Source: Naegleria gruberi | Taxonomy: Eukaryota | Assembly: GCA_000004985.1 (NCBI GenBank) | Contig: GG738859.1 | DNA length: 64,000 nucleotides | Direction: 5' to 3' (one strand) | Shown here: positions 45,297 through 51,288 of the stretch, piece by piece | Numbering within the stretch: the first letter of the stretch is position 1 | How the letters are laid out: the number at the start of each line of letters is the position of its first letter | Translations under genes and position numbers: made by a program | Notes under the pieces: model-generated | The model's input: only the letters and a program-made list of their open reading frames with translations | Databases searched by the model: none | What the model was told of the DNA's origin: nothing

Positions 45297-45830
45297 ATGG
45301 AGGCAATGCAAATTGTTGGATTGGTAGACTCTCTCGAATTATTGGAAGCCATCAAATCAGTTCGGAATCAAGTCTTTGTTCAGGAACAAGAAATTGACTC
45401 TACTCTAGAATTTGATGCCAATGATATTCAATTTAAAGAAGGATTGGAAAATTCATCAACAACCTCTCTTTTAAACAAACTCCGCTATTATTATATTAAA
45501 TTCAATGGTGATGATGGAGAGGTGTGTGGTACATGCCGAGCAAGAAAAACCACTGATTCAACTTGGAAAATTGAAAGAGTGGCCACTTTGAAAAATCATA
45601 GAGGAAAGGGATTGGGACAGAGTTTGATTTCGTTTGTTATTGATGATTTGTCCAAGTTGGATGATTCCAGTAATAGTGAGGAAACAACTTTTTACATTCA
45701 TGCTCAATTGTCTGCTTATCCATTCTGGAGTCGAGGCAATTTCAATAATGGAAAATTTATTAAAGTTGGAGAAGATTTTGAGGAAGCTAGTATTCCACAT
45801 TGTAAAATGATCTACCATCCAAATAAGTAA
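45297..45830 (+). CDS. GNAT-family N-acetyltransferase.
   Basis: 177-aa ORF. The acetyl-CoA binding motif is in IERVATLKNHRGKGLGQSLISFVIDD (R/QxxGxG/A). The N-terminal part has a conserved-looking FVQEQEI block. Confidence 0.6.
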   Translation: MEAMQIVGLVDSLELLEAIKSVRNQVFVQEQEIDSTLEFDANDIQFKEGLENSSTTSLLNKLRYYYIKFNGDDGEVCGTCRARKTTDSTWKIERVATLKNHRGKGLGQSLISFVIDDLSKLDDSSNSEETTFYIHAQLSAYPFWSRGNFNNGKFIKVGEDFEEASIPHCKMIYHPNK

Positions 45831-46408: not shown

Positions 46409-48931
46409 ATGGTTTATGTTAACGAGGAAATTGAACAAGCTAAAGAAAAGGTTTTGAATGAATTGGGTTATGCTCCAATGGCCATTGTTCTTGGAAGTGG
46501 TCTTGGTGATTTTCCAAAAGTACTTTTAAATGCTAAAAAGTTATCCTACTCTCAAATTCCACACATGCCACAAACATCAGTTCAAGGTCACTCTGGAGAA
46601 TTGATTCTTGGTGAATTGCCAACCAATGATAATCAAAAGAGACTTATTTACTGTTTTGCTGGAAGAATTCACTCATATGAAGGAGGTCCTTGGGATGAAG
46701 TTACCTTCCAAGTTAAATTGATGGCTTCAATTGGTTGTAAACTTTTTATCATGACAAATGCAAGTGGTGGTCTTTTTGATGAAATGAGTGGAGGTTGTTT
46801 GTGTTTATTGACAGGTCATTTCCGTTTATTAGCAAGAATGGATCCAAACAGTCTTGCACCTGGGGCTAGAGTTTCAAATGGTCAATTATTAGAAACTAGT
46901 TTTGAAAAGAATGAACAAATTTCACAAATTGAAGACAAGTACTCACACTTTGCTCCAGATTATTGGACTTCCAAGTATGTTAATTTGTGTAGAAGTGTTG
47001 CCAAGGAGCAAGGTATTAAATTATTCGAAGGTTCTTATGCTTGGGCTAGTGGTCCTTCATTTGAAACTCCACTCGAAGTTTTGATGGCTAAACAATTGGG
47101 AGGTGCTTGTGTTGGTATGTCAACTGTTCCTGAAATGCTCACATGTAATTATTATGGAATGGAATGTATGGGTATTAGTATGGTTTGTAATTTGGGAGCT
47201 GGTTTGCAAACTGAACCACTCACTCACAAGGAAGTTTTAGAAAATTCCAAGATTGGTACTGAACATATGCAATTGTTGGTTAAGGAAACTCTTTCCAAGA
47301 TTGATTTTGATGAAGCCACTCCACAAACTACCACCACCACTGAATATCTTCCACTCAGAAAGAATGAATCCACTCACAAACTCACAGCTGAATCTATTGC
47401 AAAGGCTGCTGAAATTATTAGAGTAACTTTGGGAGAAATTGACTCGGTTCAAATGAATGTCTATTGTACTCTTCCAGATGCTCCAAATGTTAGTGAACTC
47501 GAAAATAAGGTCGACTTGATGACTCTTCCACAATTCCCATACAGTACTGCCTCTGGTAATTTTGGTTACTTTACCAAGAATTCCAAGAATCAACTCACCT
47601 TGATTACCAATACTCACTCCAGTTTGGACAATACATTGACCACTGAAGAATCTACTTACATTGCTTTGGTTCTCAACTTACTCAACATTCCAAACGTTGC
47701 CTACTTTGTCAAGTGTTCTGATTCAAAGGTTGTTCCAGGTGTCACCCAACAAGAAATTACCAACGTTACCAACTTTGGTTACTATGAACCATTAGAATAC
47801 GTTGAAACAGTTTACAGAACTTCTGAACGTTTCGTTGATACTACCAGCAAAGATACCAAGAAGAATTCCTACATGGCCTTTATGGGTCCTGATTTACCTT
47901 GTGCTATGGAATGTCACACTGCTGAAGAATTGGGTCATGCTGTTTATGGTGTTACCTCTCTTGCTTTGCATAATTCTTTGAAGTATTTGGGTTTCAATGT
48001 CAAGACTTTTGTTGAATTTGTTGGTGCTCCAGAAAAGAATGCTGTTCAAATTGAAAATGTTGCTACTAGAACTGTCAAGCAAGTTGATATTGAACAAAAC
48101 CACAAGCTTCACTATCAAATGCTCAAGATTAGTGAAATTGAAGAAGCCACTCAGTTTGTAAAGGAACAATTGGAACTCACTGATAAGAATATTGAATCTG
48201 TTATTCTCGATTTGAACTTGAATTTGCCATTCACTCAACATGAAAATATCAAGATTATCAAGTCTGTTCCATTCAAGAATATTCCACATCTCCAAACTGA
48301 ATTTGGTCAAACTCTCTCATTGGCCACTATTGGTGATAAGCACATTTTGGTTGTTCACCATATTGATCAATCTGATGAAAGCACTTATTTGCGTAGTAAT
48401 TCATTGATTGAATTGTCATTCATTATCAGAGTTTGTCAACATTTGCACACTGTTAATAATATTTATCTCAATAGTGCTGTTGTCAGTGCTCTCAATTCAA
48501 ACTTTGAACCAATTTATACTCCAAACACATTAGTTCAATACCGTGATCACATTAACTTTACCGGATACAATCCATTGATTGGTAAGAATGAAAACAGATG
48601 GGGTGATAGATTCTTTGATGTTTCAGGATTGTACAGACCACTCAAGACCTCAACTAAGGTTGAAACTACCAATGTCATGTATGCCAATCACATTCTCCAA
48701 CTTGATAATAAGGAATTACGTTCTACTGTCTCTAAATTCAACGTTAACGTCTTGAGTTCTGTTGGTGGATATGAAGCTCTCGTTGCTCACCACGATGTCA
48801 AGCCAAAGGAAGAAAGAGTCAGATGTGTTTCATTGGGATTGGTTATTAATGAAAATTCTGAAAAGTTAATTTGTCCAGAAAAGAAGAAGGAATTAATCAC
48901 CACTCTCTGTAATGATATTTTAGGATTGTAA
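46409..48931 (+). CDS. Purine nucleoside phosphorylase (PNP/MTAP family) with three PNP-like domains in tandem in one 840-aa polypeptide.
   Basis: Domain 1 (about aa 1-290) is canonical: MPQTSVQGHSGELILGEL, GRIHSYEGGPWDEVTFQVKLMASIGCKLFIMTNASGGL, ASGPSFETPLEVLMAKQLGGACVGMSTVPE. Domain 2 (about 300-560) is degenerate: LPQFPYSTASGNFGYF, MAFMGPDLPCAMECHTAEELGHAVYGVTSLA. Domain 3 (about 570-840) is nearer consensus: VQYRDHINFTGYNPLIGKNENRWGDRFFDVSGLYRP and the C-terminal ALVAHHDVK. Confidence 0.75.
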   Translation: MVYVNEEIEQAKEKVLNELGYAPMAIVLGSGLGDFPKVLLNAKKLSYSQIPHMPQTSVQGHSGELILGELPTNDNQKRLIYCFAGRIHSYEGGPWDEVTFQVKLMASIGCKLFIMTNASGGLFDEMSGGCLCLLTGHFRLLARMDPNSLAPGARVSNGQLLETSFEKNEQISQIEDKYSHFAPDYWTSKYVNLCRSVAKEQGIKLFEGSYAWASGPSFETPLEVLMAKQLGGACVGMSTVPEMLTCNYYGMECMGISMVCNLGAGLQTEPLTHKEVLENSKIGTEHMQLLVKETLSKIDFDEATPQTTTTTEYLPLRKNESTHKLTAESIAKAAEIIRVTLGEIDSVQMNVYCTLPDAPNVSELENKVDLMTLPQFPYSTASGNFGYFTKNSKNQLTLITNTHSSLDNTLTTEESTYIALVLNLLNIPNVAYFVKCSDSKVVPGVTQQEITNVTNFGYYEPLEYVETVYRTSERFVDTTSKDTKKNSYMAFMGPDLPCAMECHTAEELGHAVYGVTSLALHNSLKYLGFNVKTFVEFVGAPEKNAVQIENVATRTVKQVDIEQNHKLHYQMLKISEIEEATQFVKEQLELTDKNIESVILDLNLNLPFTQHENIKIIKSVPFKNIPHLQTEFGQTLSLATIGDKHILVVHHIDQSDESTYLRSNSLIELSFIIRVCQHLHTVNNIYLNSAVVSALNSNFEPIYTPNTLVQYRDHINFTGYNPLIGKNENRWGDRFFDVSGLYRPLKTSTKVETTNVMYANHILQLDNKELRSTVSKFNVNVLSSVGGYEALVAHHDVKPKEERVRCVSLGLVINENSEKLICPEKKKELITTLCNDILGL

Positions 48932-49061: not shown

Positions 49062-51288
49062 TTAAAGAGCTTCTCGACGAGTCATGGTCAATAATTGTTG
49101 AGCATAATTCATACAGACCTTTTCACTCTCACTCATCCATTTGCCTTCTCTTCTCTCCTTCAATTTGGTCTGAATAATTTGAGCCCATTGTTGATCACAT
49201 TGAGCAAAGTGTTGCAACATTTTATCAATCACTCTTTGTTCAGTCACTCTAAAGAAGCTGGCAGCAATATTATCACACAAATTATTCTTATCCTTCTCTG
49301 GGAGAATCTTCCAGAAATCAGCAACTTGAGAATACAAATCCTCGAAAGAACCTTCATTTGGAACTTCATACAGACCACAATTTCCAGTAACCTTAAATGG
49401 TGGATCAATGTATTTGGCATTTGGTTTCAAACCTCCAAAGGCACTTCCAGTATAGTGAGGGAAGGAATCATTGATTGGAATGTACATGTTACCACCCAGG
49501 TAATTATTCATTGGTTCAATGCCATGTGGACGATTGACATAGAGTTGCTTAAAGTTTGGACCAATACGATGAATTTGAGTATAATCATAAATTAATAATC
49601 TTCCTTGCAATAGCTATTAACGAAAAACATGTATAAATATTTCAAACTCATGAACAAGTAAACTTACCTTATCAGGACTCAATCCAATTCCAGGAACAAC
49701 AGTAGCAGGAGAGAAGGCCACTTGTTCAACCTCTGTGAAATAATCCACAACATTTCTATTCACCTCCAACGTACCAACCTCAATCAATGGATAATCTGCA
49801 TGTTTCCAAACCTTTGTAGCATCAAATGTCCATGGATGTTTGTAACCTTCCTCCTCTGGCATGACCTGAATCATCATCTTCCAACGAGGGAAATTCTGTT
49901 TCTCAATTGACTGATACAAATCACGAGAAAGGAAATTTGGATCCTCACCTGCTACTAATTTTGCTTCATGTTGATTGAAACCGAAAGCTCCTTGTTGAGA
50001 AACTAAATGGAATTTGACCCAGAAACGTTCTTTGGCAGAGTTGACCAATGAGAAAGTGTGGCAACCATAAGCATTCATGGTTCTGTAGGAAAGAGGAGTT
50101 CCAGTTCGATCTGTGAAGAGCATGGCCATTTGATGGAGTCCTTCTGGGTGGTTGGCAACATAGTCCCAGGTTTGGGTAATGTTCCAGCAACCAGTTCTTG
50201 GATCACGTTTGAAAGCATGGACTTGGTCTGTGTGGTTGAGGAAGAATGTAGAGTTTAGTTGTTGGAAAGGTTTAGTTTGAAAAATTGTTAGTGGAAAGTG
50301 AAATAAACAACTTACCTGGACCTGCTTTGGCATCTCTGACAGCAAAGACAGGAGTGTTGATGCCCAATAAATCCCAGTTACCTTCCTTAGTATAGAATTT
50401 GATAGCGAATCCTCTTGGCTTGGAAATTGAAAAAATGATATTCGAAAGTCAATATTAAACTTAAAAACTTACATCTCTTGTAGTTTCTGGATCTCCAACT
50501 TCAGTAAAGATACCAGAAAATCTAGTAATAAATTGAGTTGACTTTCCAACTTGATTAAACAAATCAGCACAAGTATACTTGGAAATGTCATTTGTCACAG
50601 TAAATGTACCATAAGCACCAGTTCCCAAAGCATGTACATTTCTTGGAGGAATCTTTTCAGTATTGAAATGTTGAAGCTTTTCTAACAAATCCAAATCTTG
50701 AACACAAAGTGGACCTTGACTGCCAGATGTTAAAGAATCCTTGACATGACCAATTGGACAACCTGTTTGTCTTGTAATGATATTTTGTCTGTTAATTTCA
50801 TTTTGTTCAATCACACCTGGAATTTTACCAAATTGCTTACTGACTTCCTTGGAAGTGAATGAGTCTGAACCATATCCAAGCGGACATTTTAATTGTTGTG
50901 ATAATTGACTACTTTCAAGTCCTTGTTCTTGTTGAAGCTTTGGTTGAGTGGATTGAATTCCAGATGGTTGTAATCCAGAAGTTTGCTTTCCATATTGTTG
51001 TTGTTGAAGTTGTGGTTGTTGTTGCAGTTGTTGTGGTTGCTGTTGAAGTTGTGGTTGATTGGGTTGTTGTAAGCCAACCTGTTGTTGTTGTACTCCAGTT
51101 GGTGATTGTTGCATTCCAGTTGGAGATTGTTGTGATTGTTGTGATTGTTGTTGAGTGGAAGATAAATGAGAAGGTCTGAAGGCACCACTAGCATACGTTG
51201 GTGAAAAACCTTGTTGTTGCTGAGTGGGTGATTTCTGTTGTAAACCACCCTGTTGTTGTTGAGGTGATTGTGGTTGGTTTGATTGCAT
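49062..51288 (-). CDS. Catalase with a poly-Q N-terminal extension. Four exons: complement(join(49062..49613,49668..50227,50316..50418,50473..51288)).
   Basis: Catalase motifs span the three pieces the ORF track reports: [77 protein letters not shown] | [34 protein letters not shown] | [13 protein letters not shown]...[48 protein letters not shown] | [21 protein letters not shown]. Introns are 54, 88 and 54 nt, with GTAAGT donors and ..AG acceptors, and every junction is in phase. The first ~130 aa are a Q/S/P-rich tract encoded by CAA/CAG repeats. Confidence 0.85.

Follow-up and report, generated by a model that had tools for sequence, protein, structure and literature searches.

A tandem purine nucleoside phosphorylase of Naegleria gruberi with one intact and two degenerate PNP domains, a probable single-chain pseudo-trimer

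Canonical purine nucleoside phosphorylases (PNPs) are homotrimers of chains of about 280 aa with three identical sites. In calf PNP the interface is directional, with loop 141-168 of one subunit packed against residues 87-91 and 196-205 in the adjacent one, and Phe159 is the sole active-site residue supplied by the neighbouring subunit (PMC9916683). Disruption of the interface lowers activity about 1e5-fold and the monomer is essentially inactive; in human PNP, F159A does not greatly change activity (PMC9916683). The reason why mammalian-type PNP must be a trimer is an open question, the older 'one-third-the-sites' explanation being disputed (PMC9916683). Subunits of a usually trimeric enzyme joined in one chain are described among dUTPases. 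The enzyme of Drosophila virilis is a single-chain pseudo-heterotrimer of three near-identical domains, described as catalytically active, and the dUTPase of the herpesvirus EBV (PDB 2BSY) is a monomeric two-domain protein that arose by duplication and fusion of a trimeric enzyme subunit (PMC12524310). A literature search found no PNP described as tandem, fused or pseudo-trimeric, and no account of a Naegleria PNP.

The window analysed here is a stretch of 64,000 nucleotides of N. gruberi DNA (contig GG738859.1). It includes a complete single-exon CDS on the + strand (46409..48931; 840 aa plus stop) that starts with ATG and has no internal stop over 2520 nt, exactly the uninterrupted 840-aa ORF described in an earlier note made from the sequence alone. 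An open frame of 840 codons is far above chance expectation in this DNA of 35% G+C, the orthologue alignment covers both ends of the protein, and an identical protein sequence is also encoded by an independent metagenome contig. The product is N. gruberi XP_002679035.1 (UniProt D2VAE0), annotated as 'purine phosphorylase family protein'; the assignment is based on equal length (840 aa) and a common 90%-identity cluster. The host belongs to Heterolobosea (Discoba), not to the amoebozoans as the earlier note had implied, and the pathogen Naegleria fowleri has an orthologue that is 64% identical. An operon-like or contextual link to the neighbouring genes (GNAT acetyltransferase, catalase) was considered and dropped, the locus being eukaryotic and the genes unrelated.

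Pfam detects a single PNP_UDP_1 domain (PF01048) in the protein, at aa 24-295 (E=2e-35; 122.7 bits, the cut-off being 25.1). Scanned separately, the middle and C-terminal domains (D2 and D3) give no PNP match, a sub-threshold DIX match being judged noise, and pairwise BLASTP among the protein thirds is not significant (best E 0.014), so that single-sequence methods are blind to these repeats. By themselves, a lone Pfam domain and the BLASTP result would count against three PNP domains on the earlier note's own terms; family profiles overturn that reading. In hhalign comparisons of family profiles, D2 matches the N-terminal domain (D1) with a probability of 98.8% (E=7e-17, 228 columns) and D3 matches it with 98.2% (E=5e-14, 216 columns), at identities to D1 of just about 13-14%. 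Against human PNP the corresponding profile-profile E values are 2e-62 for D1, 3e-18 for D2 and 2e-26 for D3. A D2-only profile matches solved PNPs in the PDB over nearly the full chain (E=6e-22), and D2-only and D3-only HMMs match unrelated canonical bacterial PNPs at E values of about 1e-13 to 1e-36, those of D3 falling between 1e-30 and 1e-36. In structure searches, the top 50 Foldseek matches of an AlphaFold model of D2 alone are all trimeric PNPs (E=2.5e-10, TM about 0.57), as are the top matches of the full-length model, which fall on D1 (TMt 0.84-0.89). For D3, hhalign and pLDDT values of 85-95 support the fold, and no family besides PNP shows a match to the C-terminal 540 aa. The three tandem PNP domains suspected earlier are borne out by the profile comparison of all three thirds and by the D2 structure search, although the PF01048 scan proposed to detect them found D1 and left D2 and D3 to be recovered through profile methods. 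The 840-aa chain is confirmed as three homologous PNP-derived domains, one catalytically intact and two degenerate.

Residue statistics were taken over 43 proteins of this kind from at least five eukaryotic lineages; 27 of the proteins lie outside the set that yielded the pattern. Of the catalytic residues that a human PNP subunit supplies to its own pocket, D1 keeps 97%, D2 8% and D3 4%. D1 (46409..47308, + strand; aa 1-300), which besides its Pfam score of 122.7 bits matches PDB PNPs at E=8e-48, keeps the pocket residues S30, H61, R86, H88, Y90, E91, N117, A118, G120, F218, E219, M237, S238, N261 and H273. These correspond, in the same order, to human PNP S33, H64, R84, H86, Y88, E89, N115, A116, G118, F200, E201, M219, S220, N243 and H257. 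The phosphate-binding set (human Ser33, Arg84, His86, Ser220) is represented by S30, R86, H88 and S238, conserved at 85-100% across the family. The 6-oxopurine pair Glu201/Asn243 and the ribose contacts Tyr88, Met219 and His257 are represented by E219, N261, Y90, M237 and H273, whose retention among the 27 new proteins is 96-100%. The intact appearance of the N-terminal domain, remarked on earlier, is upheld by this residue map and by its retention in the family. Read from the intact residue set alone, the substrates of D1 would be 6-oxopurine nucleosides, with phosphorolysis of inosine and guanosine.

An asymmetry that had escaped the earlier note is that D1 has no donor-loop motif of its own. 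Its loop (46805..46966, + strand; aa 133-186) is degenerate and expanded, is skipped by the PDB alignment and has pLDDT values of 33-61; the canonical DHINL...NPL...RF has shrunk to GHFRLLARMDPN plus a low-complexity insert. The Phe159 equivalent is gone, with A182 in its place, and is present in 1 of the 43 D1 domains.

The three motifs quoted earlier as phosphate- and ribose-binding-like blocks of the later repeats are all located in the protein (FPYSTASGNFGYF, aa 376-388; MGPDLPCAMECH, aa 492-503; RDHINFTGYNPLIGKNENRWGDRFFDVS, aa 712-739), but the ligand contacts themselves have been replaced. In both D2 and D3 the phosphate-binding positions (Ser33, Arg84, His86, Ser220) are retained at 0-7% each, and the base and ribose residues (Glu201, Asn243, Tyr88, Met219, His257) at no more than 11%. 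D2 (47372..48094, + strand; aa 322-562) keeps only the scaffold: its catalytic residues are substituted, the pocket-lining motifs FPxxSxSG and GPxxPSxxE are conserved, and the acceptor-side interface motif GPxxPxxxE is kept, with Gly-Pro at 74-89% on the acceptor face. E501 (codon 47909-47911) is the equivalent of human Glu205, a position kept in 37/43 D2 domains. A second live site was considered for P0073 and Anaeramoeba P0085, where the middle domain fits the D1 HMM better, and was rejected since the catalytic residues are replaced there too.

The pocket of D3 (48176..48928, + strand; aa 590-840) is dead. Its stretch RDHINF...RFFDVS, taken earlier for a phosphate/ribose-type block, is instead the inter-subunit loop with the Phe159 equivalent. 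This donor loop, RDHINFTGYNPLIGKNENRWGDRFFDVSGLY (48542..48634, + strand; aa 712-742), corresponds to human PNP inter-subunit loop 133-166, aligns directly to residues 121-162 of PDB PNPs (phmmer) and is the best conserved stretch of D3. The Phe159 equivalent is F735 (codon 48611-48613), which is invariant in the orthologue alignment together with G725, N727 and G732. Over the 43 proteins, the D3 equivalents of F159 and G156 are found in 43/43 and that of R158 in 41/43; the Arg148 equivalent is hydrophobic (I/T/F), so that the canonical contacts are only partly retained. The loop is modelled with confidence (pLDDT 76-85), and the equivalent loop in D1 and D2 is disordered (33-45).

The architecture, which the earlier note had rightly set apart as distinct from that of canonical PNP, is no Naegleria oddity and belongs to a widespread protist family of at least 57 members, found in Discoba, Alveolata, CRuMs, Breviatea and Anaeramoebae. 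Transcriptome ORFs marked as complete and carrying the three domains are known from Rigifila, Pygsuia and MMETSP taxa, along with an ORF in a Diphylleia Trinity transcript; the complete ORFs show that single mRNAs encode all three PNP domains in other species. In a positional HMM test on the 27 new proteins, segment 1 was assigned to D1 in 27/27, segment 2 to D2 in 24/27 and segment 3 to D3 in 27/27. Such positional orthology shows a single ancient triplication, maintained since.

The two halves of the subunit interface have been conserved unequally. The Phe159 equivalent, rare in D1, is present in 3/43 D2 and in all D3 domains, and the Glu205 equivalent in 43/43 D1 and 0/43 D3 domains. Donor-loop conservation over the 43 proteins is 0.59 in D3, 0.29 in D1 and 0.15 in D2, and acceptor-face conservation is 0.75 in D1, 0.49 in D2 and 0.18 in D3, so that the ranks of the two halves match around a D1-to-D2-to-D3-to-D1 ring, with a strong D3-to-D1, a partial D1-to-D2 and a degenerate D2-to-D3 interface. 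Aromatics around the Phe159 pocket (positions 86, 88, 192, 200 and 257, a cluster that we infer from the active-site list in PMC9916683) are kept only in D1, at 95-100% aromatic, against 0-49% in D2. The AlphaFold pTM of the full-length 840 aa (0.83) is on a par with that of isolated D2 (0.80), which would not be expected of freely hinged domains.

The chain is probably a covalently linked pseudo-trimer, derived from fused and then specialised PNP subunits, in which D3 and D1 form one composite active site at their interface. Three ancestral subunits of a trimeric (low-molecular-mass, NP-I) PNP would have been joined head to tail and then specialised. D1 keeps the whole pocket for 6-oxopurine nucleoside and phosphate, including the Glu201/Asn243 equivalents, and D2 and D3 would serve as catalytically dead scaffolds, the three domains folding back onto one another as the subunits of an ordinary PNP trimer do. 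The D3 loop with F735 would pack against D1 and complete its active site, the degenerate loop of D1 would pack against the D2 acceptor face with its Glu205 equivalent, and the D2-to-D3 contact would have decayed, leaving each polypeptide with a single composite active site. D2 and D3, though dead, are proposed to be retained because a PNP pocket is nonfunctional without a neighbour. Of the pseudo-trimer suggested in the earlier note, one active and two degenerate domains are thus observed, and ring packing of the three domains within one chain is the most likely arrangement, given the pTM of 0.83 and the directional interface conservation. The D3-to-D1 direction of the ring is suggested by the matched conservation levels. 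As F159A is reported to be near-neutral in human PNP, F735 may be invariant for the sake of a stable interface and not for catalysis.

The near-neutrality of F159A (PMC9916683) would also fit the opposite ring order, where the D3 loop structurally plugs the dead pocket of D2 and the D1 site is bordered by the D2 loop, with no Phe159-type lid. The D2 acceptor face is likewise conserved (Glu205 equivalent in 37/43, Gly-Pro at 74-89%), but this order pairs the best conserved acceptor (D1, 0.75) with the weakest donor (D2, 0.15), and the semi-conserved donor of D1 with the decayed acceptor of D3 (0.18; no Glu205 in 43/43). The aromatic partners of Phe159 are, moreover, missing from the D2 pocket (0-49% aromatic) and present in that of D1 (95-100%), and the opposite order appears rather unlikely. 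Trimerisation is an intrinsic tendency of PNP domains, and the D3 loop could complete the D1 pocket of another chain, or like domains could stack as homotrimers. Such intermolecular assembly is quite unlikely, the single-chain model being compact and confident already (pTM 0.83); in stacked D1 homotrimers every site would lack Phe159 (1/43 D1 domains), and the invariance of F735 in a domain with a dead pocket would be left unexplained.

Dead enzyme domains are commonly repurposed, and D2 keeps the pocket-lining FPxxSxSG and GPxxPSxxE motifs. D2 and D3 might be independent beads on a string that have acquired a new role, such as sensing a ligand, regulation or binding of a protein, and that do nothing to support D1. 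Their conservation, however, sits at canonical subunit-interface positions and not at pocket ligands, the global pTM is high (0.83) and monomeric PNP is essentially inactive (PMC9916683), all of which make independent domains very unlikely. It is extremely improbable that three adjacent PNP genes have been read as a single ORF through an error of gene model or assembly, with a frame open across 2520 nt, the identical protein on an independent metagenome contig and the same architecture in at least 57 proteins, including complete transcriptome ORFs.

The pseudo-trimer proposed here shares with trimeric NP-I PNPs (human and calf PNP, bacterial PNP-I/XapA; PF01048) the fold of D1 and, in that domain, every phosphate, ribose and 6-oxopurine residue. 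D2 and D3 as well as D1 are homologous to these enzymes, and the donor loop (Phe159) and acceptor face (Glu205) are recognisable. Unlike them, it is one chain of non-equivalent domains, in which only D1 has an intact pocket, only D3 has an intact lid loop and the pockets of D2 and D3 are dead, and hence not a homotrimer with three equivalent sites. Like the D. virilis dUTPase, it carries three subunits of a usually homotrimeric enzyme of nucleotide metabolism in tandem in one polypeptide; that dUTPase folds trimer-like, as the tandem PNP probably does. The dUTPase fold (jelly-roll) is unrelated, and the D. virilis domains are described as near-identical, whereas D2 and D3 of the tandem PNP have lost all catalytic residues and are just about 13-14% identical to D1. 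In EBV dUTPase, motif loss has left complementary pieces of different domains to make a single site, the same logic as that of D1 pocket and D3 loop. The EBV enzyme, of unrelated fold, has two domains and is confined to viruses, whereas the tandem PNP has three, is cellular and is widespread in free-living protists. Bacterial PNP fusions such as phosphopentomutase-PNP (PF01676+PF01048, about 660 aa; P0012-P0037) are also long and annotated as PNP, but they combine a single canonical PNP, with its own Phe159 loop, with a different enzyme and lack any counterpart of D2 and D3.

On a broader reading, the fused PNP, judged by its occurrence in Discoba, Alveolata, CRuMs, Breviatea and Anaeramoebae, could be of ancient origin among eukaryotes and might even pre-date LECA, and its dead pockets, especially that of D2 with FPxxSxSG and GPxxPSxxE, could now act as allosteric sensors of nucleoside or phosphate that regulate the single catalytic site. 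This reading is speculative and, as a whole, unlikely; if true, it would make the protein a PNP with built-in regulation, with no counterpart among characterised PNPs.

The tandem PNP is a reminder that diverged repeat domains are under-called by single-HMM scans, and a clean case of fusion followed by complementary degeneration. Transition-state analogues targeting PNP exist, and with an orthologue in N. fowleri the unusual architecture may have practical interest. A PNP that is asymmetric and has a single site in each particle would be useful for work on stoichiometry, dynamics and inhibitors. The family is also a natural experiment on why PNP needs a trimer: a three-domain body has been kept across protist lineages while two of three sites were lost and exactly one neighbour-donated loop was kept, which argues that the trimer provides structural support to each pocket rather than communication between sites.

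The PNP (purine nucleoside phosphorylase) gene lies at 46409-48931 on the plus strand of the window and consists of one ORF, uninterrupted for 840 codons, whose ATG start has an A-rich context; at 35% G+C for the region, a stop-free frame of this length is impossible by chance. The protein is 100% identical to P0001 (840 aa), the representative of a 90%-identity cluster that includes Naegleria gruberi NEG-M XP_002679035.1 / EFC46291.1 / UniProt D2VAE0 (840 aa, ‘purine phosphorylase family protein’). This makes the host a heterolobosean (Discoba), whereas the earlier note had taken it for an amoebozoan. A sequence-identical protein is encoded on ENA metagenome contig L001 (ERZ929261, PRJEB11402, 3573 bp), which places N. 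gruberi or a near-identical strain in that environmental sample. Directly upstream of the PNP gene is a 177-aa ORF for a GNAT acetyltransferase (45297-45830, plus strand; PF00583, E=1e-8), and its other neighbour is a catalase gene on the minus strand (49062-51288), whose three ORF pieces (49062-49610, 49617-50345, and 50461-51288) imply two short introns. Inspection of the locus revealed no apparent functional connection of either neighbour to PNP. Unusually for such an enzyme, the catalase domain is preceded by an N-terminal extension of about 170 aa that is very rich in glutamine, with QQQ runs.

Three tandem PNP domains had been proposed for this ORF. Plain Pfam scanning of the 840-aa protein detects PNP_UDP_1 at aa 24-295 only (122.7 bits) and zero domains in the remaining 540 aa, and BLASTP of the thirds against each other gives nothing significant, so that these two methods alone would leave one domain; profile comparison recovers all three. 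The protein could be aligned over its entire length with 15 proteins 740-900 aa long, and profiles of its successive thirds, D1 (aa 1-300), D2 (aa 322-562), and D3 (aa 590-840), were cut from this alignment. D2 matches D1 with 98.8% probability (E=7e-17, 228 columns), D3 matches D1 with 98.2% (E=5e-14, 216 columns), and D2 matches D3 with 93.3% (E=2.8e-7); against human PNP, the E-values are 2e-62 (D1), 3e-18 (D2), and 2e-26 (D3). HMMs built from the D2 and D3 columns match canonical bacterial PNP domains outside the training set (E ~1e-13 to 1e-17 and ~1e-30 to 1e-36, respectively), and a separately built D2 profile matches solved PNP structures over nearly the full chain (E=6e-22). A D2-only model (pLDDT 79.5, pTM 0.80) retrieves exclusively trimeric PNPs among the Foldseek top 50 (E=2.5e-10, TM ~0.57, 12-16% identity), which are also the best matches of the full-length model (TMt 0.84-0.89). 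No match of the C-terminal part to any other family was found. The agreement of profiles, HMMs, and structure searches confirms the three-domain observation.

Classical human PNP residues, with the human numbering checked, were mapped onto each domain. D1 is complete for the own-chain active site (S30, H61, R86, H88, Y90, E91, N117, A118, G120, F218, E219, M237, S238, N261, and H273), and essentially all of these residues are substituted in D2 and D3, which bears out the proposal of one intact and two degenerate domains. The same substitutions contradict the view that the conserved blocks of the later repeats bind phosphate and ribose, and the block in D3 is of another kind. The canonical central segment DHxNxxGxNPLxGxNxxxFGxRFxDMSxAY, known from trimeric PNPs as their long inter-subunit loop, aligns in comparison with PDB entries to D3 aa 702-743 and not to D1. 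This donor loop carries Phe159, the sole residue of the active site that comes from the adjacent subunit (PMC9916683), and its equivalent in D3 is F735. The complementarity of D1 pocket and D3 loop had been overlooked. The D1 donor loop (46805-46966, plus strand; aa 133-186) is degenerate, with a low-complexity insert and pLDDT of 33-61. The insert is lineage-specific: N. fowleri and N. lovaniensis carry a longer, Q-rich version, and Willaertia, Acrasis, and the ciliates a short one or none; this variation fits relaxed constraint on a loop facing a dead pocket.

When 1.84 billion representatives were searched exhaustively by profile and the matches labelled with domain-specific HMMs, 57 proteins proved to have the D1-D2-D3 architecture. 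Members occur in Heterolobosea (Naegleria fowleri, N. lovaniensis, Willaertia magna, Acrasis kona), heterotrich ciliates (Stentor coeruleus, Blepharisma stoltei), CRuMs (Rigifila ramosa, Diphylleia rotans), Breviatea (Pygsuia biforma), Anaeramoeba ignava, and MMETSP marine protists; in Andalucia godoyi (Jakobida) the match is partial, with D1 and D3 detected only. Several members are transcriptome ORFs marked complete, so at least in those species the three domains reside on a single mRNA. Six proteins of 630-810 aa (P0088, P0092, P0100, P0102, P0109, and P0112) are labelled D1-D2 only, and may be truncated gene calls, forms with D3 diverged beyond detection, or genuine two-domain forms. Other PNP fusions among the homologues (P0012-P0037, P0041, P0045, and P0052; metagenomic, mostly unnamed) include the abundant phosphopentomutase-PNP (~660 aa), PAS/GAF/HisKA-PNP (998 aa), amidohydrolase-PNP (715 aa), and PNP with concentrative nucleoside-transporter domains (578 aa).

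Across all 43 full-length members, the own-chain catalytic residues are 97% identical to those of human PNP in D1, 8% in D2, and 4% in D3; a Phe159 equivalent occurs in 1/43, 3/43, and 43/43 of these domains, respectively. The pattern recurs in 27 representatives outside those used to derive it: D1 keeps the catalytic residues at 96-100% and Phe159 in one protein, D2 and D3 keep the catalytic residues at ≤11% (except for the Glu89 equivalent of D2, 52%), and D3 retains Phe159 and Gly156 in all 27, and Arg158 and Asn137 in 26 each. The best-scoring HMM was that of the same position for D1 and D3 in every new protein and for D2 in 24/27, which points to a single ancestral triplication rather than repeated fusions. 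The middle domains of P0073 (metagenomic) and P0085 (Anaeramoeba ignava KAJ5071334.1) favour the D1 HMM over the D2 HMM (E=2e-33 and 2e-17) and may be less diverged and nearer the ancestral state; their catalytic residues are replaced nonetheless.

The interface of calf PNP is directional, with loop 141-168 and Asn137/Asn145 of one subunit contacting residues 87-91 and 196-205, including Glu205, of the next (PMC9916683). A mostly monomeric mutant with six interface alanines loses activity ~1e5-fold (PMC9916683), and a lone PNP domain is thus not a competent enzyme. In the fused family (43 members), conservation of these half-interfaces is strongly asymmetric between domains: donor loop and acceptor face score 0.29 and 0.75 in D1 (whole-domain mean 0.47), 0.15 and 0.49 in D2 (mean 0.23), and 0.59 and 0.18 in D3 (mean 0.23), and Glu205 is present in 43/43, 37/43, and 0/43, respectively. 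By these levels, donors and acceptors pair neatly only for a D1-to-D2-to-D3-to-D1 ring, with strong conservation on both sides of D3 donor/D1 acceptor, partial conservation on both sides of D1 donor/D2 acceptor, and decay on both sides of D2 donor/D3 acceptor. Only D1 has the aromatic residues expected around Phe159: at positions 86, 88, 192, 200, and 257, a set that we infer from the active-site list of that paper, 95-100% of D1 domains are aromatic, compared with 0-49% of D2 domains. The full-length AlphaFold model has a pTM of 0.83, as high as an isolated domain, implying that the three domains are placed confidently relative to one another, and its D3 loop is well ordered (pLDDT 76-85), the D1 and D2 equivalents not.

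The fused protein is most likely a covalent pseudo-trimer, as proposed earlier, in which the D1 pocket and the D3 lid together make up one composite active site; directional interface conservation and the confident model support this reading. We infer both the ring packing within one chain and its direction: the D3 donor on the D1 acceptor would be the catalytic interface, the D1 donor on the D2 acceptor a structural one, and D2 and D3 would persist as indispensable scaffolds. Because Glu201 and Asn243 are intact in D1, inosine and guanosine should be the substrates.

The opposite ring order, in which the D3 loop would plug the dead D2 pocket, is improbable, as it mismatches the donor and acceptor conservation levels and D2 lacks the aromatic partners of Phe159. 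Intermolecular, domain-swapped assemblies are disfavoured by the already confident single-chain model, and stacked D1 homotrimers would leave every site without Phe159. Independent, repurposed roles of D2 and D3 are likewise disfavoured, since the positions conserved there belong to the interface and not to pocket ligands; a regulatory role of the dead pockets is nevertheless possible, if improbable. A gene-model artefact is effectively refuted by the unbroken ORF, the identical metagenomic protein, and the 57 proteins of the same architecture, complete transcriptome ORFs included.

Judged by its sequence, its fold, and the active site of D1, the fused PNP is a member of the trimeric NP-I PNP family, and its enzyme chemistry is not new, but it departs from one defining feature of that family, since it is not a homotrimer with equivalent sites in all three subunits. 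Conceptually, its nearest precedents are dUTPases, of unrelated fold: that of Drosophila virilis is a single-chain pseudo-heterotrimer, and the herpesvirus enzyme is monomeric, with one site built of complementary motifs from duplicated domains (PMC12524310). The three domains of the D. virilis dUTPase are near-identical, whereas D2 and D3 of the fused PNP are degenerate. Full-text literature searches turned up no account of a tandem or pseudo-trimeric PNP, and databases label the members plain PNP or hypothetical; the architecture is widespread and seems to have gone undescribed. It is directly relevant to why PNP should be a trimer, which is an open question, and it also occurs in the pathogen N. 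fowleri.
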